A stretch of DNA of 64,000 nucleotides. Origin: Gemmatimonadota bacterium (GTDB lineage Bacteria; Gemmatimonadota; Gemmatimonadetes; Gemmatimonadales; GWC2-71-9). Of the stretch, positions 2,540 through 47,601 are shown one piece after another. The stretch covers positions 395 through 64,394 of the forward strand of contig JANNSD010000152.1 of the NCBI GenBank assembly GCA_031402225.1, given 5' to 3'. The notes under the pieces were generated by a model. That model was not told the origin of the DNA. It searched no databases and saw only the letters and a program-made list of their open reading frames with translations. Every line of letters begins with the position of its first letter. The stretch's first letter is position 1. A program made the position numbers and the translations under genes.

Positions 2540-3097
2540 ATGAATCCAAGCTTCCTCGCCTCCAGCCACTGCGCCGGCATCGGCCGCCGCTTCTTCCAGC
2601 AGCTCCGCGCCACCCTCGAACGTGAGGTTGGTGTACAGACCGCCGCGTACCTGCAGGAAGCAGGGTTCGCTGGTGGCGCCGAGCTGTACGGTGCCTACGC
2701 CGCGTGGCTGAAGGAAACCTACCAGCTCGCCGATCCGGGCGACCTCGACCAGGCCTTCCTGAGCGAGGTGCTCTCACGCTTCTTCTCGGAAATCGGCTGG
2801 GGCCCATTGACGGCGCGCCCGCTGGGCGATGCCGTGCTGGCCCTCGATGCCATCGAGTGGGCGGAGGCCGGCGAGCCGGGCTCGAGCGAGTATCCCTCCT
2901 GTCATGTGAGTTGCGGCATGCTCGCGGAGTTCTTCGGCCGGCTGTCAGGCCAGGTCACCGCCGTCATGCAGGTTGAGTGTCCCTCCCGGGGGGACCCGCG
3001 AGCCCGGTTCCTGGCTGGCGCTCCCGAGACCCTGGGCGCGATCTACGACCGCATGTCGCAGGGCATGGCATACGGCGAGGCGCTGGGACTTGCGTGA
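2540..3097 (+). CDS. V4R (4-vinyl reductase) domain protein
   Basis: IGWG, SCHVSCGMLAEFF and VECPSRGDPRARF match the V4R small-molecule-binding domain pattern. Confidence 0.75.
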   Translation: MNPSFLASSHCAGIGRRFFQQLRATLEREVGVQTAAYLQEAGFAGGAELYGAYAAWLKETYQLADPGDLDQAFLSEVLSRFFSEIGWGPLTARPLGDAVLALDAIEWAEAGEPGSSEYPSCHVSCGMLAEFFGRLSGQVTAVMQVECPSRGDPRARFLAGAPETLGAIYDRMSQGMAYGEALGLA

Positions 3098-3167
3098 CGT
3101 GAGGACGTGAGGACGTGAGGACGTGAGGACGTGAGGACGTGAGGACGTGAGGACGTGAGGACGTGAG
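3096..3167 (+). repeat. Octamer tandem array (GACGTGAG)x9
   Basis: Nine perfect copies read directly; the first overlaps the TGA stop of the V4R gene. Confidence 0.98.
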
Positions 3168-3174
3168 CCAGAAT

Positions 3175-3202
3175 GTCATCCTGAGCGCAGCGAAGGATCT
3201 AC
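3175..3202 (+). repeat. REP-like short palindromic element GTCATCCTGAG...CGAAGGATCTAC
   Basis: ATCCT/AGGAT inverted repeat; a second copy lies at 14485-14520 on the minus strand. Confidence 0.75.
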
Positions 3203-3218
3203 CTGCAGGCGTTGGGAG

Positions 3219-5978: not shown

Positions 5979-7274
5979 TCAGCGAGGTGCGACCGTCATC
6001 CCCTCCAGTAGCAGCGGGGGCAGCAACGAGCTGCCGACCCAGCGCGCATCGCGGCCAATACCCCCGATGGACCCGAGGGCGTCGAAGACATTTCCGGCGA
6101 TGACCACACCCTCGACGCGCCCGGTCACCTCCCCGCCCTGCACCCGGTAGCCGAGCACCACCGGATGGGTGAAGGCCCCGGAGCGGGAGCTGCCACCGGT
6201 TCCGCCGGCAACGGCATCGACGAGCAGGCCATCGCCCATGGCAGCGATGAGCGCCATCAGGTCATGCTCGCCTGCATGCAGGACCAGATTGGAGAAGGCG
6301 GGCTGAGTCTTGCCGAAGGTTGAACGGCGACCGTGGCCGGTGGATGGGCGCCCCGCGAGCGCGCCGGTCTCCAGGTCGTAGATGCAGCGGCGGATCACGC
6401 CGCCCTCGATGAGCGGTGCCCGGAAGCTCGGAACGCCCTCATCGTCAACCGGCCGGGAGCCCGCCTGCCCGTCGCGCAGCGGGTCGTCCGTCAGGAAGAG
6501 ACTCGGGTGCAGCACCTGTGCCCCGAGGCTCTCGGCGAGCGGCGAAGTGCCCAGGAGGCAGGCCTTTCCGACCAGTGCCTGCTGCACCGGCGCCAGCAGC
6601 ACTCGCACCGCTTCGGGAAGGAGCAGCACCGGCGCGGTGGCGGCGGGCGCTGGCGCCGACAGCTCGGCCCACGCGAGCCGCTGTTCGACGTCGGCCACGA
6701 GCACGTCGAGCGCCGCATCATCGGGCAGGTCAGCCCCCGCTACATGGGTGACGACCTGAACGCTGCCACCTTCCGATGGGCCTACCACGTCGATGTCGAG
6801 CGCCACCAGCGTCACCTGGTATTCCGTGTCTACACCGCGGGTATTGCCCACCTGCACTGATCCCACCGAGCGCTCCACATGTACTGTGACGCTGCGACCG
6901 CTCTGCCGCAGTCGATTGGTCAGCAGGCCGCCCAGCTGCCCCAGTTGCGTCACGGTGGCCGCCGCGGCCCGCGGCACATGGGTATGGACCTGCGGCAGCG
7001 GTGACGGGCTGGGCAACAGCAGCGGGGCCGCGTCGCCCGCGGCAGCCGATGCGAAAGCAGCGTCCAGCAGCGCGTCCGGATCGGTCACCGTGGTACCGGC
7101 CACGCCAACCCGCCCATCCACGACAACCCGCAGGCTGTGGCCCGCCTGTTCGGCGGTGTGCGCAGCGATGAGGTTGCCGTCGCGCAACCGCAGCGTGAGC
7201 GTTTCGTCGGTCTTGCTGACGGCGTCGGCCATCTGCACGCGCGCGCGCGCGGCGTCCAGCAGTCGTGCGATCAC
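5979..7274 (-). CDS. PmbA/TldE family metalloprotease subunit
   Basis: DDP...GSRPVDDEGVP, STGHG, SGAF; no HExxxH motif; directly downstream of tldD. Confidence 0.85.
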   Translation of the reverse strand: MIARLLDAARARVQMADAVSKTDETLTLRLRDGNLIAAHTAEQAGHSLRVVVDGRVGVAGTTVTDPDALLDAAFASAAAGDAAPLLLPSPSPLPQVHTHVPRAAAATVTQLGQLGGLLTNRLRQSGRSVTVHVERSVGSVQVGNTRGVDTEYQVTLVALDIDVVGPSEGGSVQVVTHVAGADLPDDAALDVLVADVEQRLAWAELSAPAPAATAPVLLLPEAVRVLLAPVQQALVGKACLLGTSPLAESLGAQVLHPSLFLTDDPLRDGQAGSRPVDDEGVPSFRAPLIEGGVIRRCIYDLETGALAGRPSTGHGRRSTFGKTQPAFSNLVLHAGEHDLMALIAAMGDGLLVDAVAGGTGGSSRSGAFTHPVVLGYRVQGGEVTGRVEGVVIAGNVFDALGSIGGIGRDARWVGSSLLPPLLLEGMTVAPR

Positions 7275-14484: not shown

Positions 14485-14520
14485 GTAGATCCTTCGGGCG
14501 CTGCGCGCCCTCAGGATGAC
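14485..14520 (-). repeat. REP-like palindromic element, second copy
   Basis: Minus strand GTCATCCTGAGGGCGCGCAGCGCCCGAAGGATCTAC has the same ends as 3175-3202 and a longer inner stem. Confidence 0.75.
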
Positions 14521-14528
14521 GGTGGTGC

Positions 14529-14584
14529 CTCACGTCTTCACGTCCTCACGTCCTCACATCCTCACGTCCTCACGTCCTCACGTC
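14529..14584 (-). repeat. Octamer tandem array, 7 copies (CTCACGTC on +)
   Basis: Read directly, with two single-base variants; overlaps the SDR stop codon. Confidence 0.97.
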
Positions 14585-16559: not shown

Positions 16560-16733
16560 ATGAATCCCCTGCCGTCGCTGGTGGCTGCCGTGGTGGCCCT
16601 GATCGCCTGGACCTTTCTGGTGTTCGTGCGGCAAGTGCCAAGCGGGCTCCCGCACGGGCTGTACGCGGTGGGGATCCTGCTTCTGGTACGGTGGCTGGTG
16701 CTGCGGCCAGGAGGTGAGGACGTCAGGACGTGA
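16560..16733 (+). CDS. Small 57-aa membrane protein (absent from ORF track)
   Basis: MNPLPSLVAAVVALIAWTFLVFVRQVPSGLPHGLYAVGILLLVRWLVLRPGGEDVRT; AGGA RBS; two hydrophobic segments. Confidence 0.65.
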   Translation: MNPLPSLVAAVVALIAWTFLVFVRQVPSGLPHGLYAVGILLLVRWLVLRPGGEDVRT

Positions 16734-16833
16734 GGACGTGAGGACGTGAAGTGACTAGCGGACTGGTGCCCCGTGCCCTCACGTCTTCACGTCTTCACGT
16801 CTTCACGTCTTCACGTCTTCACTTCCTCACGTC
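16711..16833. repeat. Inverted pair of octamer arrays (5 copies +, 27-bp spacer, 7 copies -)
   Basis: 16711-16750 GACGTGAG-type and 16778-16833 YTCACGTC-type, between convergent genes. Confidence 0.95.
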
Positions 16834-23359: not shown

Positions 23360-23376
23360 GGCACCAAAGCTAACTA

Positions 23377-23502
23377 CGTGAGGAGGAACGACGACTGCGT
23401 GAGGAGGAACGGCAACGGCGTGAGGAGGATCTGAAACTGCGGGGGATCCCCGCCGTCGCCGTTCCTCCTCACGCCGTTGCAGTTCCTCCTTACGCCGTTG
23501 CC
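23377..23502. repeat. Inverted pair of 21-bp tandem repeats around a short palindrome
   Basis: Three CGTGAGGAGGAACGGCAACGG-like units (23377-23439), CGGGGGATCCCCG, then about 2.4 reverse-complement units (23453-23502). Confidence 0.9.
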
Positions 23503-26125: not shown

Positions 26126-26280
26126 TCCGGAGTTAGGGCGAAAGCACGGCGACGCGGACCGGGAAGGTTCGTTCGCGACCTGCTCCCTGTCAACGCCATA
26201 CGCCCTTGGCCCCCGCCACTGGCCGGGCTAGCTTGATTTCCCGCGACAGTCGCGACCGCTATTTGAGAATCGAGGAGCCC

Positions 26281-27759
26281 GTGTCGGAGCTTGAGCTGCA
26301 CCTGAGCGCGCCCGTGGCGCGCACCCTGGAGTCGTGGGACTGGCAGGCGTCCGACCCGCTCATGCGCGATGCCGTACCCACCGTGGCCCGGGGTCACAAC
26401 CTGGTGGCCGTCCTGCCGCCGTCGCCGGCGGCGGCCGCCCCCCTCATCGGGGCAGTGCTCGGTCGCCTGGGCGGCGGGGTGCGAGGGCTCATGGTGGTGC
26501 CGCCCGGCATGCTGGCCGAGTGGGCCGGCGTCGTGTTCGGGGTCGCCGCCGGCACCGGTCTCAAGGTGGGCGCCGCGCTCGCCTCCGCCCGCGCACTCCG
26601 CGAACTCCGCACCGGCTCCCTCGATCTCCTTGTGGCCTCCCCATCGGTCATCCAGGAACTCATGACCAGTTCCGCCCTCAAGGCGGATGGCCTCGGCGTG
26701 ATTGTGCTCGCCCAGCCCGAGGCCTGGGCCGATCACGCCGCCGTCGCGCCGCTGATGCAGGACCTGCCCCTCGAGGCGCAACGGGTCATCCTCACCGCGA
26801 ACCCGGCGGCGGCGGCCGAAGTGGTGGAGCGGTATGCCCGGAAGGCGCTGGTGCTCGGCGTGCCGCCGACCGAAGCACCGCCCATGCAGCCGGTCGGCCC
26901 GGTGCGCACGGTAAGCGTGGCGTGGTCGCGTCGCGCGGCGGCGCTGGGCGAGCTGTTGCAGCTCCTCGATCCAGCCACCGTCTCCATCTGGGCGCACGAC
27001 CGGAGTGCCGCCGCGGAGATCGCGCGAGCAGTCCCCATCGACGGCGAGTCCATCCGTCTGGTCACCGGCGATGCACCGAAGTCCAGCCTTGTCATCGCGT
27101 TCGACCTCCCCTCACATGAGCGGCTCGCGCAGCTGGTCCAGGCGGGTGATACGGTGCTCCTCGTGCCACCGGGCACCGAGTCGTACGTGGCGGGCATCGC
27201 CCGGCCGACGCGAGCCCTGCGCCTCCCGGGCCTGCTGGAGGAGCATGCGGCCATCTCCACCGCCGACCGAGCTCGTATTCGCGCCGAGCTCGAGTCGGGC
27301 GACGGGTCGGCAGCGCTCCTTGCCCTCGCACCGCTGTTCGAGCGGCATGACCCGACGAGGGTGGCCGCGGCACTCTATGCGCTCTGGAAGGGACAAGAGC
27401 GGCAGGAGCGGCAAGGCGGCAAGGCGGCAGGGCGGCAGGAGGAAGCGACAGCTCCCGCGCCGGCGCCGGCGATTGCGAAGGTGTGGGTTTCGATCGGGAA
27501 GAAGGACGGGGTGACACCCGCCGACCTCGTTGGCGCCCTGACCAAGGAGTTGCGGGTGGACCGGACCGCGATCGGACGGGTTGAACTGCGCGACGGGTTC
27601 TGCCTGATCGACCTGCCCGCAGCGGATGCCGACCGGATTGCTCAGGCGCTGAGCGGGAAGATGATCCGGAAGGTCCGGGTGACGGCGCGGCTCGACCGGG
27701 TGCCCGGGGCGAGCACGGACCGCCGGCCTAGGAGCGGCGCCGGACGACCGCGTCCTTGA
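26281..27759 (+). CDS. Degenerate DEAD-box-helicase-like protein with C-terminal DbpA RNA-binding domain
   Basis: C-terminal IGKKDGVTPADLVGAL...IGRVEL; N-terminus colinear with the DeaD RecA1 domain but lacking motifs; GAGGAG RBS. Confidence 0.75.
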   Translation: MSELELHLSAPVARTLESWDWQASDPLMRDAVPTVARGHNLVAVLPPSPAAAAPLIGAVLGRLGGGVRGLMVVPPGMLAEWAGVVFGVAAGTGLKVGAALASARALRELRTGSLDLLVASPSVIQELMTSSALKADGLGVIVLAQPEAWADHAAVAPLMQDLPLEAQRVILTANPAAAAEVVERYARKALVLGVPPTEAPPMQPVGPVRTVSVAWSRRAAALGELLQLLDPATVSIWAHDRSAAAEIARAVPIDGESIRLVTGDAPKSSLVIAFDLPSHERLAQLVQAGDTVLLVPPGTESYVAGIARPTRALRLPGLLEEHAAISTADRARIRAELESGDGSAALLALAPLFERHDPTRVAAALYALWKGQERQERQGGKAAGRQEEATAPAPAPAIAKVWVSIGKKDGVTPADLVGALTKELRVDRTAIGRVELRDGFCLIDLPAADADRIAQALSGKMIRKVRVTARLDRVPGASTDRRPRSGAGRPRP

Positions 27760-28151: not shown

Positions 28152-28757
28152 ATGTATCAGGGATCGCGCACCGGATGGCTCGAGGTGGTCTCGGGGGTCA
28201 TGTTCAGCGGCAAGAGCGAAGAGCTCATCCGCCGGGTCCGCCGCGCCATCATTGCCCGCCGCACCGTGCAGGTCTTCAAGTCCCACCTCGACAGCCGGTA
28301 CGCCGGCGTCTATAGCGTCAGTAGCCACGACGGCACCGAGCTCGAGGCGATCCCCGTCGATTCCTCGGACGAGATTCTGCGACAGGTGCGGCCTGCCACG
28401 GAGATCGTCGCGATCGACGAGGCGCAGTTTCTCGACCGCGATATCGTCGCGGCGACAGCACTCCTGGCACAGCGCGGGGTACGCGTCATCCTGGCGGGCA
28501 CCGATACCGACTTCCGGGGGGAGCCGTTCGGTGCCATGGGCGACCTGATGGCCGTGGCCGAGCTGGTGGACAAGCTCCGCGCCATCTGCATGGTGTGCGG
28601 CGGCGAGGCGTGCCGGAACCAGCGACTGGTGGACGGTCGCCCGGCGCGCTGGGATTCCCCAACCATCATGGTGGGCGGCCGCGAGTCGTACGAGGCCCGT
28701 TGCCGGCATTGTCATCGGGTGCCGAGGGCGGACGAAGATCAGACGGCGTTGCTGTAG
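28152..28757 (+). CDS. tdk: Thymidine kinase
   Basis: [33 protein letters not shown]. Confidence 0.97.
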
Positions 28758-28781
28758 GACGTGAGGACGTGAGGACGTGAG
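28758..28781 (+). repeat. Octamer array (GACGTGAG)x3, left boundary of the four-helix-bundle cassette
   Basis: Begins immediately after the tdk TAG. Confidence 0.95.
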
Positions 28782-28793
28782 GCGTGGAGATTG

Positions 28794-29180
28794 CTAGTTC
28801 AGTGGCCGGACGCCACCAAGACTGCGAAACAAGCCCCACACCAAGCGACCGGCGTGGTCGACCGCCGCGGTTAGTTCGGCGATGCCTTCAGGAGGCAGAT
28901 ACCCGAGCTCCTCGCACAGGCGGATCTGGTACCTGAGTTCGTTGAATGAGGCGAGCGCAATTCCGAGGAACCGTCGAAATTCCTGCTTGCCCGGCCGCAT
29001 TGAACCCTCCACAATATTCGAGGCGATCGAGACTGCGGCTCGGCGCATTTGCGAAGTGAGCCCGAACCGTTCATCGGACGGCAACATCTTGGTAGTTTGA
29101 TAGACGCAAAGCGCTAGCTGGTGCGAGGCCCGCCATGCCTCGAGCTTCTCAAAGCGAGGGGATAATGCGTTGGCTGACAT
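28794..29180 (-). CDS. Four helix bundle protein (23S rRNA IVP / TIGR02436 family, Avd-like fold)
   Basis: FEKLEAW, LPSDERFGLTSQMRRAAVSIASNIVEG, EFRRFLGIALASFNEL, LGYL. Confidence 0.95.
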   Translation of the reverse strand: MSANALSPRFEKLEAWRASHQLALCVYQTTKMLPSDERFGLTSQMRRAAVSIASNIVEGSMRPGKQEFRRFLGIALASFNELRYQIRLCEELGYLPPEGIAELTAAVDHAGRLVWGLFRSLGGVRPLN

Positions 29181-29242
29181 GGGACCAATCTGGGGCCGGA
29201 CGGGTGGAGGCGCAGCATCATTCGCACCCAGAGCGTGGTGTA

Positions 29243-29298
29243 TTCACGTCCTCACGTCCTCACGTCCTCACGTCCTCACGCCCTCACGTCCTCACGCC
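29243..29298 (-). repeat. Octamer array, 7 copies (CTCACGTC on +), right boundary of the cassette
   Basis: Ends exactly at the inferred TTG start of coaE. Confidence 0.96.
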
Positions 29299-29904
29299 TT
29301 GCTAAACGTCGCCCTTACCGGCAACGTCGCCGCTGGCAAGTCCACGGTCGCGAACCTGTTTCGGCGCTGGGGCGCGGTGGTCATCGACGCCGACCAGCTG
29401 GTGCGCGAGGTCCAGTCGCCAGGGCATCCGGTGCTCGGCGCCATCGTGCGCCGGTTCGGCCCCGGCGTGCTGCGCCCAGATGGCACCCTCGACCGCGGCC
29501 AGCTGCGTGCGGTGGTGCTGGCCTCGCCCGAGGCACTCGCGGAACTGAACGCGATGGTCCACCCAGCGGTCAGCCGACTCCGCACCGCGCGGGTGGCCGA
29601 AGCCCGCGAGGCCGGCGCACAGGTGGTCGTCACCGACATCCCGCTGCTGTTCGAGGCCGCCGACCCCGACTCGTTCGATGTGGTGGTGCTGGTCGATGCA
29701 CCCGATGACCTGCGCCGCCAGCGGCTTTTCGAGCGGAGTGGCCTGCCGCGCCACGAATCCGATCGCCTCATGGCGACGCAATTGCCGGCCGCAGTCAAGC
29801 GCCCGCGTGCCGACTATGTGATCGATAACGACAGCGATATCGCTGCCCTCGAGGCCCGCACCGCCGAGATCTGGGCCTCGCTGGCGGCCCGCGCGGTTCC
29901 TTGA
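29299..29904 (+). CDS. coaE: Dephospho-CoA kinase
   Basis: VALTGNVAAGKSTV, IDAD, LDRGQL, DIPLLFE, ADYVIDN. TTG start inferred. Confidence 0.96.
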   Translation: MLNVALTGNVAAGKSTVANLFRRWGAVVIDADQLVREVQSPGHPVLGAIVRRFGPGVLRPDGTLDRGQLRAVVLASPEALAELNAMVHPAVSRLRTARVAEAREAGAQVVVTDIPLLFEAADPDSFDVVVLVDAPDDLRRQRLFERSGLPRHESDRLMATQLPAAVKRPRADYVIDNDSDIAALEARTAEIWASLAARAVP

Positions 29905-30449: not shown

Positions 30450-33413
30450 ATGACTGCCACCCATCGCCCCCCCGCTGGCGCCGCGCCCGAACCGGTGGAC
30501 GCCGCGGACGAGATTCGCTCGCACCGGATGCCCTCCTTCGAGGTGATGCATCCGAATCACTTCGCCTACCGCCACATCGGGCCACGCAAGGACGATGTGG
30601 CCGAGATGGTGAAGCTCCTGGGCTACGGGTCGCTCGATGACCTGATCGACGCGGTCGTGCCGGAGGATATTCGCCTGCGTCGGCCGCTTGACCTGCCGCC
30701 GGGCCGCGGCGAGCGGGAGGTACTGCAGGCGCTGCGCGGCATGGCCGACCAGAACCGGATCTTCCGCACGCACATCGGGATGGGGTACTACGGTACCTTC
30801 GTGCCGCAGGTGATCCAGCGGAATATTCTCGAGAATCCCGGCTGGTACACCGCCTATACGCCGTACCAGGCCGAGATCGCGCAGGGGCGCCTGGAAGCAC
30901 TGCTCAACTTCCAGACGATGGTCGCGGACCTGACCGGCTTGCCCATCGCGAATGCCTCGCTGCTGGATGAAGCGACGGCCGCCGCGGAGGCGATGGCGCT
31001 GACCCACGCGGTGGCGCCGCGGCACGACGCACCGGTGTATCTGGTCGACGCCGACTGCCATCCGCAGACCGTCGCGGTGGTGGTGACGCGCGCTGAGGCC
31101 CGCGGCGTGGCGGTAAAGGTGCAGTCGCCGGACCAGTTCGAGTTCGGGCCCGGGGTCATCGGCTGCCTCGTGCAATATCCGTCCACCGACGGCGCGCTGC
31201 GGGATTTCCGCGCAACTTGTTCCGCGGCGCACAGCGCGAAGGCGGTGGTGACCGCCGCCACCGACTTGCTCGCGCTGACGCTGCTCGTGCCGCCCGGCGA
31301 GTGGGGTGCCGACATCGCCGTCGGCAACAGCCAGCGCTTCGGCGTGCCGATCGGGTACGGCGGCCCGCACGCGGCGTTCTTCGCCACGAAGGACGAGTAC
31401 AAGCGGCATTTGCCTGGCCGTATCATCGGCGTGTCGAAGGACCGCGATGGGCACCCTGCGCTCCGCATGGCGCTGCAGACGCGGGAGCAGCACATCCGCC
31501 GCGAAAAGGCAACGAGCAATGTCTGCACGGCGCAGGTGCTGCTGGCGGTCATGGCCAGTATGTATGCCGTGTACCACGGGCCGGACGGCCTCCGCCGCAT
31601 CGCCGAACGGACGCATAACCGGGCCGTGATCCTCGCCAATGCCCTGCGCCGCCTGCGCTACCGGATCGTGCACGAGCATTTCTTCGACACGCTCTGTGTC
31701 GAACTGGAGCGCTGGGCGGTGCCGCGCATCGTGGATGCGGCACGATCGCGCCAGATCAACCTCCGGGTCATTTCACCGACCCGACTGGGCGTGGCCCTCG
31801 ACGAGACCACGAGCCTCGGCGACGTGGCCGACCTGATCGCGATCTTCTCGCTCAATGAGGCGCTGCCGTTCATGCTCGAGGATATCGGCGCTCCCGCGGA
31901 GCGCGCGATTCCCGCACCGCTGGCACGCACGAGTGCCTACCTCGCCCATCCCGTGTTCCACCAGCACCATTCAGAAACGGAGATGCTGCGGTACATCAAG
32001 CGACTCGAGGCGCGCGACCTCTCGCTGTGCCATGCGATGATCCCGCTCGGCAGCTGCACCATGAAGCTCAACGCCACCACCGAGATGATGCCGGTCAGCT
32101 GGCGCGGCTTCAACCGGATCCACCCCTTTGCCCCGCGCGACCAGGCCCAGGGCTACCAGGAGCTGTTCCGCCAGCTCGAGTACCAGCTCGACGAGATCAC
32201 CGGCTTCGCGCGGGTGTCACTGCAGCCCAATGCCGGCTCGCAGGGCGAGTACGCCGGCCTCATGGTGATCCGCGCCTACCATCACAGCCGCGGCGCCACC
32301 AACCGCACAATCTGCCTCATCCCCATGTCGGCGCATGGCACCAACCCGGCCAGTGCCGCGATGGTGGGCATGACCGTGGTGCCGGTGAAGAGCGATGTCG
32401 CCGGCAACATCGACATCGATGATCTCCGCGCCAAGGCGGCACAGCACGCCGACCACCTCGCGGCCCTGATGGTCACGTATCCGTCGACCCACGGCGTCTT
32501 CGAGTCGGGCATCCGCGAAATCTGCCGGATCGTGCACCAGCACGGCGGCCAGGTCTACATGGACGGGGCCAACATGAACGCGCAGGTGGGCCTCTGTCGC
32601 CCAGGCGACATCGGTGCGGATGTGTGCCACCTCAACCTGCACAAGACGTTCGCCATTCCGCACGGCGGCGGCGGGCCGGGCATGGGCCCGATCGGCGTGG
32701 CGGCTCACCTGGGCGCCTTCCTGCCGGATCACCCGGTGGTCGCCCTTGGTCACGACGCCAGCTGCGGCACGATCTCGGCGGCCCCATGGGGCAGCGCCGG
32801 TATCCTGCCCATCTCCTGGGCGTACATCAACCTGCTCGGGTACGATGGCCTGGCGGAATCGACCAAGGTCGCGATCCTCAACGCGAACTACATCGCCGCG
32901 CGGCTGGCACCGCACTATCCGGTGCTGTATTCCGGGCAGTATGGACTGGTGGCGCACGAGTGCATCATCGATACGCGCGGGTTCAAGCAGTCGGCGGGCA
33001 TTGAGGTCGAGGATATCGCCAAGCGGCTGATCGACTACGGGTTCCATCCGCCAACCGTCTCGTTCCCCGTTGCCGGCACGCTGATGATCGAGCCGACGGA
33101 GAGTGAATCGCTCGAGGAGCTCGATCGCTTCTGCGACGCGATGATCGCCATCCGCCAGGAGATCCGCGAGATCGAGGAGGGCGCGGCGCAGCGGGACAAC
33201 AACCTGCTCACCAATGCCCCGCACACCCTGCAGCAGGTGATCGGCGACCTCTGGAACCGGCCGTATCCGCGCGAACGGGCCGGGTTCCCGTCGGCCGCCG
33301 TGCGCGAATCGAAGGTGTGGCCCACGGTGGGCCGGATCGACGGGGCGTATGGGGACAGGAACTTGATCTGTACATGCGTTGGGATGGATGAGCTCGAAGA
33401 CGTGAAGACGTGA
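30450..33413 (+). CDS. gcvP: Glycine dehydrogenase (P protein, single chain)
   Basis: [54 protein letters not shown]. Confidence 0.98.
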
Positions 33414-33470
33414 GGACGTGAGGACGTGAAGAACTCCCCTCACGTCCTCACGTCCTCACGTCCTCACGCT
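33399..33470. repeat. Inverted pair of octamer arrays (4 copies +, 8-bp spacer, 4 copies -)
   Basis: 33399-33430 and 33439-33470; overlaps the gcvP end and the next gene's start. Confidence 0.95.
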
Positions 33471-47553: not shown

Positions 47554-47601
47554 TTCACGTCCTCACGTCCTCACGTCCTCACGTCCTCACGTCTTCACGT
47601 C
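47554..47601 (-). repeat. Octamer array, 6 copies (YTCACGTC on +)
   Basis: Read directly; contains the regulator's stop codon. Confidence 0.96.

Follow-up and report, generated by a model that had tools for sequence, protein, structure and literature searches.

Between the thymidine kinase gene tdk and the dephospho-CoA kinase gene coaE of a Gemmatimonadota bacterium lies a single small antisense gene, enclosed by two inverted arrays of tandem octamers, and the question raised by this locus is what kind of element such an arrangement represents. The locus is part of a 64,000-nucleotide stretch (assembly GCA_031402225.1, contig JANNSD010000152.1, positions 395 to 64,394), referred to here as the window; its source genome (3.6 Mb in 201 contigs, 99.9% complete by markers) is denoted G000, and other genomes are numbered in the same series. 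The enclosed gene encodes a four-helix-bundle (4HB) protein of family PF05635/TIGR02436, and a first-pass annotation of the window had proposed that gene and arrays together form a mobile cassette. The answer that we favour, and regard as probable albeit not strongly so, is a selfish cassette built like the intervening sequences (IVSs) of 23S rRNA genes, with a pentameric protein that is likely to bind the phased repeats and to be coupled to the way they spread, no transposase being involved. The window cassette appears to be the parent copy of short tandem repeats dispersed in this and many other genomes.

A 4HB cassette at the tdk-coaE junction

The cassette is a PF05635 gene with terminal inverted repeats, each arm of which is a short array of 7- or 8-nt tandem units; its parts are listed in Table 1 together with the other arrays of the window that are discussed below. 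The TAG stop codon of tdk (28755-28757) contributes the first AG of the left arm, in which three exact GACGTGAG units (28758-28781) are followed by a degenerate one (28782-28789), giving five AG dinucleotides in exact 8-nt phase at 28756, 28764, 28772, 28780 and 28788. Tandem Repeats Finder (TRF) calls this arm at 28756-28786 (period 8, 4.0 copies) and the right arm at 29244-29296 (6.6 copies, 95% matches); the right-hand array extends to 29298 and abuts the TTG at 29299, which is the coaE start and aligns with the ATG of relatives in which tdk and coaE abut. The first-pass annotation had placed both arrays at these borders, and correctly so, but it had read all seven right-hand units as CTCACGTC, and two of them are CTCACGCC.

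Table 1. Coordinates of the cassette, its host genes and other arrays in the window.
Feature	Position	Strand	Basis or remark
tdk (thymidine kinase)	28152..28757	+	left host gene; PF00265 167 bits, NF003296 263 bits
left (5') arm: (GACGTGAG)x3, then degenerate unit GCGTGGAG	28756..28789	+	sequence reading; TRF
4HB gene, 128 aa	28794..29180	-	antisense to tdk and coaE; PF05635/TIGR02436
63-nt leader between right-hand array and 4HB ATG	29181..29243	-	sequence reading
right (3') arm: ~6.6 copies of CTCACGTC, two degenerate	29244..29298	+	reverse complement of left arm
coaE (dephospho-CoA kinase)	29299..29904	+	right host gene; PF01121 166.6 bits, TIGR00152 143 bits
gene-less inverted pair, unit as in cassette, 29-bp loop	16709..16833		TRF
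gene-less inverted pair over last gcvP codons, 5-bp loop	33396..33468		TRF
solo array (GACGTGAG)x9, begins at TGA stop	3096..3167	+	
solo array, 7 units, beside terminator-like hairpin	14528..14584	-	
solo array, ~6 units	47555..47601	-	

The sole long open reading frame (ORF) between the arms is the 4HB gene, which is, as had been claimed, visibly less GC-rich (59.4%) than tdk (67.5%) and coaE (70.5%); its product scores 116.3 bits against PF05635 (cut-off 33.8) and 108.4 bits against TIGR02436 (cut-off 24). The 16-mer GACGTGAGGACGTGAG occurs 21 times in the window and in none of 100 shuffles. In both the minimum-free-energy and the centroid RNA fold of the cassette the two arms pair with each other (-252.3 kcal/mol, z -4.5). 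Rfam gave no match in the window or in the cassette, the site is not within 23S rRNA, and PADLOC gave no match.

The protein carries the family motif R..S...N..E within RRAAVSIASNIVEG, satisfying the pattern GxxRxxxSxxxNxxE quoted for the family in PMC3936711. Across 30 4HB sequences Q34, N45, E48, S68 and E71 are invariant and R37 and S41 at least 90% conserved, and the invariant polar residues sit on helices 2 and 3. Among solved relatives PDB 2gsc (E 3.9e-22) has five chains, as does 2rld, and the accessible text of PMC4990558 describes the Xanthomonas homologue XCC0516 as a toroidal homopentamer; by analogy with these solved relatives the window protein is probably a toroidal homopentamer too. 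The gene is under purifying selection, since dN/dS (the ratio of nonsynonymous to synonymous substitution rates) against orthologues is 0.07-0.32. Readings of the locus as a diversity-generating retroelement (DGR), a REP-associated tyrosine transposase (RAYT) or a PD-(D/E)XK element were tried and dropped, as RVT_1, Y1_Tnp (PF01797) and PDDEXK_3 each have no match in the whole genome.

Comparison with relatives shows that the cassette is an insertion. We searched G000 and 40 relatives and compared junction sequences at 19 loci; tdk and coaE are neighbours in all 41 genomes. The distance from stop to start is 0-2 bp in G005 (L012) and G008 (L007) of the same genus and in G030 (L017), which belongs to a different family in the order; at L010, L011, L013 and L019 it is 13-32 bp and repeat-free. 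A 4HB cassette occupies the junction at L001-L005 and L008, empty inverted arrays of other heptamers at L016, L018 and L020, a one-sided array at L015, and a 130-bp spacer bearing a hairpin at L009. An empty site had been anticipated in related genomes, and G008 and G005 supply it, with tdk and coaE spaced 1 and 0 bp apart and neither repeats nor gene between them; the contrary case, in which the gene would be fixed in relatives that lack the repeats, did not occur. In part of the genus, then, insertion of the cassette took place precisely where tdk stops and coaE starts, and the junction is an insertion hot spot. Contig joints that skip ~469 bases were considered as a further empty tdk-coaE site and rejected; they have only 20-26 letters on each side, all of them array, and were taken as other array loci. 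Among the contig runs compared with the cassette, the one from RNA had no coverage of the 4HB gene. The junction of the G016 genus (L014) holds an unrelated 472-bp insert with an arginine-rich ORF that has no PF05635 match, and no arrays.

The cassettes at this junction are not all alike. Their units are GACGTGAG in G000, G003 and G006, GACTTGAG-like in G010 and GGCGTCAG in G009, both arms having changed in concert among genomes, and in G001 the cassette lies in the opposite orientation with unit GGCGGCAA. The 4HB proteins of G001 and G009 are 43-52% identical to that of the window, and tdk is 82-96% identical across those genomes, so that at least three 4HB lineages occur at one junction within one genus. 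Synonymous divergence (dS) of the cassette is 0.20 against G003 (flanking genes 0.59-0.63) and 1.64 against G010 (flanking genes 0.55-0.73). The coaE start is TTG in all six cassette-bearing genomes (L001-L005 and L008), whichever 4HB lineage they carry, and ATG at five of the six cassette-free loci of the genus (L007, L009-L011 and L013), the start at L012 being ambiguous because the ORFs overlap. This pattern of start codons hints that the three cassette lineages may have replaced each other at a single ancestral insertion.

4HB genes and arrays across genomes

All five PF05635 matches of G000 are flanked by inverted arrays (judged by eye), each with its own unit. The other four paralogues have no GACGTGAG nearby; their units are AGTCGTG-type on contig C66 (at the contig end), AGGCGTT on C161, AGACGGG on C136 and a 15-mer on C95. 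By an automatic rule that recovers three of the five 4HB genes, inverted same-unit arrays flank 11 of 2838 other called genes. The enrichment of arrays around 4HB paralogues that the first-pass annotation had predicted is therefore seen, although with a different unit for each paralogue.

The four 7- and 8-nt units that flank 4HB genes are also the commonest dispersed array families of the genome by whole-genome TRF. There are 330 arrays of period 7 or 8 in G000, among them 121 GACGTGAG arrays; by canonical unit TRF reports 82 of ACGTCCTC and 21 of a variant of it, 62 of ACGACTC, 45 of ACGGGAG, 14 of ACGCCTC and 7 of AACGCCT. Forty-nine inverted pairs have a spacer below 100 bp and none has one of 100-200 bp, and in every one of the 49 short-spacer pairs the G-rich, AG-bearing arm is the 5' one.

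At the level of the order, 33 of the 41 genomes have PF05635 matches. In the 115 analysed (two second pieces of split matches were dropped), an array lies within 300 bp of 108 genes: inverted arrays on both sides of 50, arrays on both sides that the rule left unmatched in 31, and an array on one side of 27. We also collected the best 80 of at least 593 relatives found with one peptide pattern from a seven-sequence alignment, keeping one genome per species. These come from Planctomycetota, Chloroflexota, Acidobacteriota, Bacteroidota, Verrucomicrobiota, Patescibacteria, Clostridia, Actinobacteria, Proteobacteria and others and span 32-71% GC; among these best 80, 7-mer arrays stand on both sides at 36 loci and on one side at 23, with 8-mer cases besides. 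There are 3.41 arrays per kb in the 200 bp next to the gene, and over the rest of these loci the figure falls to 0.144 per kb. The two arms are reverse-complementary at two mismatches or fewer in 34 of the 36 two-sided loci, and arms of different loci mostly differ by 3-4; at L140 they are exact 30-nt reverse complements, the order of variant units included. The same layout is found on pNPUN02 of Nostoc punctiforme and on a Calothrix plasmid, and plasmid alpha of Nostoc PCC 7120 has the 3' arm only. TRF thresholds and gene calls were rough throughout.

The arms share a phase. Read in the sense of the 5' arm, AG is present in 54/59 cross-phylum units and CT in 17/59; the order-level figures are 81/108 and 18/108. 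The unit consensus is AG-Y-N-R-T-Y and the modal arm has 4.25-4.75 copies, 30-31 nt and five AG (19/56), so the arm is typically about five 7-8-nt repeats with a shared phased AG, some 31 nt in all. In many loci the upstream arm ends beside the ribosome-binding site. Cassette orientation follows no single rule. Across phyla, 70 of 79 cassettes point the same way as the gene upstream; within the present order, 63 of 80 have a downstream neighbour on the other strand. As a cause of the polarity we considered stop codons in all frames, which fits GACGTGAG and fails for units such as AGCTGTC of other phyla, and dropped it as a general explanation.

The array units of a genome go largely with the cassettes that it carries. 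Counting three-unit patterns with at most two mismatches, GACGTGAG has 250 matches in G000, 188 in G006, 114 in G010 (its cassette with a variant unit) and 32 in G003, all genomes in which a 4HB gene is flanked by that unit; of the remaining genomes G001 has 22, G008 two, G004 one and 34 others none. GGGAGAC has 237 matches in G000 and 74 in G007, both with the matching cassette, and none in the rest of the genus; G022 has 43 and G018 has 19, and the 4HB gene of G022 has the related unit GACGGGG. AGGGAAC has 139 matches in G008, where the cassette matches, 79 in G010 and at most four elsewhere. The genome with the GGCGGCAA cassette, G001, has 38 matches to that unit and the others at most 11, and G009, with the CGGGACGG cassette, has 60 and all 11 others none. 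Reverse-read controls gave zero in most genomes, with up to 17 per genome for the GGGAGAC and CGGGACGG controls. For all five units, then, the highest count is in a genome with the matching cassette.

Unit and protein lineage go together as well; the first-pass annotation had proposed to compare them. Cassettes with the same unit in different genomes encode proteins 70-94% identical, those with different units 22-56%, and across phyla protein identity and unit distance are correlated (Mantel r -0.142, p <= 0.0005, n 59). Genomes without the gene have few arrays or none: G005, 99% complete, has no 4HB gene and two weak 7-/8-nt arrays in 208 kb, and G016 and G019, also without 4HB genes, have none in 149 kb and 170 kb. 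G021 (six 4HB genes) has two arrays in 95 kb and G023 (four) has six in 167 kb, the arrays in each including its own 4HB unit; G000, with five genes, has 9.2 arrays per 100 kb. Two metagenome-assembled genomes (MAGs) have dispersed gene-less arrays that match their cassettes: one of Bacteroidota, in which 49 matches are spread over 13 contigs, and one deltaproteobacterial, in which 28 fall at ~25 places.

REPIN-RAYT systems, in which the REPINs depend on a RAYT, consist of a single gene flanked by the same repeat that populates the intergenic regions of the genome; several families coexist per genome, each matched to its own gene, and the repeats are lost without the gene. In the present genomes, too, the repeat population correlates with the matching 4HB gene. 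The parallel had been drawn in the first-pass annotation with the proviso that a transposase is lacking, and G000 indeed has neither a Y1/HUH transposase (PF01797, no match) nor a reverse transcriptase. Unlike REP palindromes, its repeats are tandem 7-8-nt units, and the loops of its paired arrays are unrelated.

Known systems, mechanism and rival explanations

The closest described architecture is that of the 23S rRNA IVSs. For Coxiella, the accessible text of PMC4990558 describes an S23p ORF inside a 28-bp terminal stem, with two or three tandem heptamers before the ATG, their number varying between strains, and RNase III cleavage within the stem; ORF-bearing IVSs are there regarded as selfish and possibly mobile elements. 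The window cassette resembles the IVSs of Leptospira and Coxiella in having a PF05635 ORF in the loop of a ~28-31-bp stem formed by terminal inverted repeats, and short tandem repeats upstream of the ATG. The term "undescribed element" in the first-pass annotation was therefore too strong. In contrast to rRNA IVSs, the window cassette sits between protein genes and antisense to both, not in helix 25 or 45 of 23S rRNA; its unit is 8 nt, its arms are expanded and the genome holds more than 100 gene-less copies.

The dispersed arrays also have precedents. Intergenic heptamers are reported for Xanthomonas (GGGAATC), Nostoc (GGGGA(T/C)T) and Beggiatoaceae (TAACTGA), together with the cyanobacterial short tandemly repeated repetitive (STRR) sequences, and in X. 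campestris they form 70 convergent plus/minus pairs (PMC4692102 and PMC4679880, accessible text). Like the window arrays they have a non-triplet period, are intergenic, often form convergent pairs and abut start or stop codons. Their origin is left unexplained ("no mechanism is evident"), and the main text of these two papers, as far as it is accessible, does not mention S23p/4HB genes, although supplementary tables might list such neighbours; the present arrays differ in being tied to a matching PF05635 cassette. Stray 4HB genes are reported in cas loci and in rRNA genes of the candidate phyla radiation (PMC3936711; bioRxiv 10.1101/2024.02.27.582315). We found no paper linking PF05635 generally to flanking inverted arrays, or dispersed arrays to a matching 4HB gene, in a search that did not extend to supplements, subscription journals and database notes; in the literature covered, heptamers stand beside the 4HB family in the Coxiella IVS paper alone, and there, in its accessible text, only locally (PMC4990558).

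Two protein systems bear on how such an array could be read. Avd, according to the accessible text of bioRxiv 10.1101/2023.10.23.563531, is a pentameric barrel of four-helix bundles "similar to S23 ribosomal proteins", and in the DGR particle all five Avd protomers contact one RNA element through the same residues, with bases held in the crevices between protomers. The window protein falls under the Avd cut-offs, its genome lacks the reverse transcriptase partner, and what it presumably binds is a phased tandem repeat in place of a stem-loop with flipped bases. By analogy only, a second case is the trp RNA-binding attenuation protein (TRAP). It is a ring-shaped homo-oligomer that binds one short motif per subunit in a phased RNA repeat, in competition with an alternative stem; its fold and subunit number are unrelated to those of the 4HB protein, and it is a host regulator with no link to mobile cassettes.

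Under the selfish-cassette reading, each protomer of the pentamer, or each crevice between protomers, would take up one of the five repeats that share the AG phase in the 5' arm; the bound form would most likely be RNA or otherwise single-stranded. With the AG arm at the 5' end on both strands, that arm would be the first made in transcripts from either, and it would end beside the ribosome-binding site. Binding would compete with the ~30-bp stem between the arms, which in rRNA IVSs is an RNase III substrate, and would set the processing and translation of the cassette itself, because it would decide whether the stem forms and is cut. The same binding might stabilise, seed or expand matching repeats elsewhere, giving a REPIN-like population without a transposase. 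A candidate route of movement is recombination via the arms, with existing array pairs as landing sites; arm exchange of this kind would be consistent with the disagreement in dS between cassette and flanks and with cassettes having replaced each other at a single junction. A sharper proposal, which we put forward tentatively and on balance doubt, is that the pentamer reads phased AG-N5/6 repeats sequence-specifically, a single repeat for each protomer, and that its stabilisation of slipped or single-stranded intermediates drives the birth, expansion and homogenisation of matching arrays throughout the genome. If true, this would be protein-directed seeding of repeats at stop codons and terminator hairpins without transposase or reverse transcriptase, and it would account together for the ORF-bearing rRNA IVSs, the unassigned 4HB family and the STRR-type heptamer excess.

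Several observations weigh against the selfish-cassette reading. G010 and G001 have 79 AGGGAAC and 22 GACGTGAG matches, and no matching 4HB gene was found in either, these genomes being 83% and 90% complete. No array accompanies seven of the 115 order-level 4HB genes. Spread is not universal, since the unit is confined to the cassette in a Pontibacter genome and in a Ruminococcus MAG; as the picture outside the lineage is mixed, we take the cassette with its two arms as the constant and the gene-less spread as a lineage-specific extra. Five of the 59 cross-phylum units lack AG, as does the Xanthomonas unit GGGAATC (PMC4692102, accessible text). Because a single peptide pattern gave at least 593 matches, of which the cross-phylum set keeps the best 80, that set samples one subfamily, and related genomes are non-independent samples. 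The tdk|coaE junction shows no target-site duplication. Among the 49 empty pairs of G000 the loops are mutually unrelated and several hold textbook terminator hairpins, and where orthologous sites carry arrays, part of the growth seems to have happened on the spot, starting from the end of the gene (as at 33396). A transposon or miniature inverted-repeat transposable element (MITE) would likewise have terminal inverted repeats, but the cassette has no target-site duplication and the gene-less copies share no internal sequence; since their loops are unrelated and often native terminator hairpins, the gene-less pairs are not simple MITE copies.

One alternative is that the 4HB pentamer is a domesticated RNA-binding regulator of the host, with the arrays as its regulon and autoregulatory sites and nothing mobile today. 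This would explain the purifying selection, the upstream arms that end by a ribosome-binding site, and the placing of arrays relative to genes, 122 of the 167 G-rich arrays that follow a same-strand gene beginning within 5 bp of the stop codon (by rough gene calls); a translational role has also been proposed for the TAACTGA repeats (PMC4679880, accessible text). No conserved regulon is seen, however, as the six orthologous sites compared differ in having an array, lacking one or carrying one of a different family; the gene itself is present or absent among congeners, and three protein lineages share one junction. Relatives of the gene lie inside rRNA genes and cas operons, some genomes have arrays at the cassette only, and three relatives do without gene and arrays alike. 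We consider this explanation unlikely.

Arrays and genes might instead have independent origins, the arrays arising by replication slippage and hairpin-templated strand switching at terminators and the 4HB genes being passive cargo in the loops. Many empty-pair loops hold terminator hairpins and are mutually unrelated, which fits this, as do the separate homogenisation of the two arms, often to slightly different variants in empty pairs, and the arrays that seemingly grow in place from a gene's end; a heptamer excess has also been described with no link to a protein (PMC4692102, accessible text). What makes it improbable is that genomes without 4HB genes are almost array-free, that unit families track the matching 4HB lineage in five of five tests, and that the cassette keeps its own arms in genomes that have no dispersed arrays. 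The exact 30-nt arms of L140, with their conserved order of variant units, and the conservation of the AG phase and the five-unit mode across phyla and from 32 to 71% GC also speak against it.

A DGR remnant, that is, an Avd that lost its reverse transcriptase, template and variable repeats, is very improbable: the weak matches to bAvd (PF22296, 27.1 bits) and DivGenRetAVD (NF033474, 31.5 bits) are below the cut-offs of 40 and 80 and far exceeded by PF05635 and TIGR02436, no RVT_1 is found in a 99.9%-complete genome, and short tandem arrays stand at the flanks in place of a template/variable repeat pair. An assembly artefact or chance repeat, conceivable in a fragmented 201-contig assembly whose contigs repeats can break, has next to no probability: four further assemblies, some of them nearly closed, have this cassette at this junction, independent metagenome contigs cover it, and shuffles give zero matches.

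The selfish-cassette reading would unite three matters: what a very large family, its members annotated as "four helix bundle protein" or "S23 ribosomal protein", does; what the ORF-bearing rRNA IVSs are, suspected to be mobile since 1993; and where the over-represented STRR-type intergenic heptamer and octamer repeats come from, whose excess has been known for decades and which are used for strain fingerprinting. It would describe a selfish element whose sole gene product is a small pentameric nucleic-acid binder and not a recombinase. Cassettes and arrays in operons, cas loci and rRNA genes would then be annotated as insertions and not as parts of those systems, and they break assemblies. 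A family with programmable 7-8-nt specificity read five times could also serve as an RNA- or single-stranded DNA-binding scaffold.

Gene-less arrays at individual sites

The first-pass annotation had reported two empty inverted pairs in the window with spacers of 27 and 8 bp; the pairs exist, and their spacers by TRF borders are those of Table 1. Orthologous sites in G003, G006 and G010 (~80% nucleotide identity) have no array, one arm, both arms or another family at six window sites. At 16709-16833 G006 has one arm, G003 about two units and G010 nothing, and the site at 33396-33468 is lacking in G010, holds three units in G003 and carries both arms in G006. The nine-unit array at 3096-3167 is matched by no array or by other units in all three genomes, that at 14528-14584 is absent from the G003 site, and at 47555-47601 G010 has a heptamer array, (TGTTCCC)n, instead. 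Turnover is thus fast, and certain sites are reused repeatedly.

Array pairs of G000 with spacers of 200-3000 bp bracket ordinary genes and, by translations inspected by eye, no second kind of cargo; the bracketed genes include the MutL C-terminal part, TatD, a Ser/Thr kinase, XerC, MiaA, Tgt and a DUF503-like ORF. The last of these (C134:165-516, 92 aa, judged by eye, 288-bp spacer) is the only other small gene tightly bracketed by inverted heptamers.

A further motif, GTCATCCTGAGCG(C/G)AGCGAAGGA, directly adjoins octamer arrays at window positions 3168-3203 and ~14505-14527 and at the G006 site orthologous to 14528; on C154 of G000 arrays enclose a tandem repeat related to it, whose translation is a run of VILSEAF repeats. 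The GTCATCCTGAGCG-type motif is perhaps another dispersed element, moving together with the arrays. At 23372-23502 of the window a GGGGATCCCC hairpin has an array of a 21-nt unit on either side, the two inverted, and this unit is related to the 15-mer found beside the C95 4HB gene. At the orthologous site G006 has heptamer arrays, G003 has single units and G010 is empty.

Arrays also occur inside coding sequence. On C161 of G000 the fpg/mutM-like ORF adjoining the 4HB cassette has an in-frame (CGCCTCA)n array at 6360-6428, read as RLTPHASRPTPHASRPTPHAQ, and a second, shorter array further in (6798-6821); because the frame stays open, arrays seem to be tolerated within genes if their length is a multiple of three. 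In the window itself, an octamer array of the GGCGGCAA family at 27394-27439 (matched by the GGCGGCAA pattern at G000:C152:27801-27832) lies inside a 517-aa ORF at 26206-27759, where it is read as a QERQERQGGKAAGRQ-like stretch.

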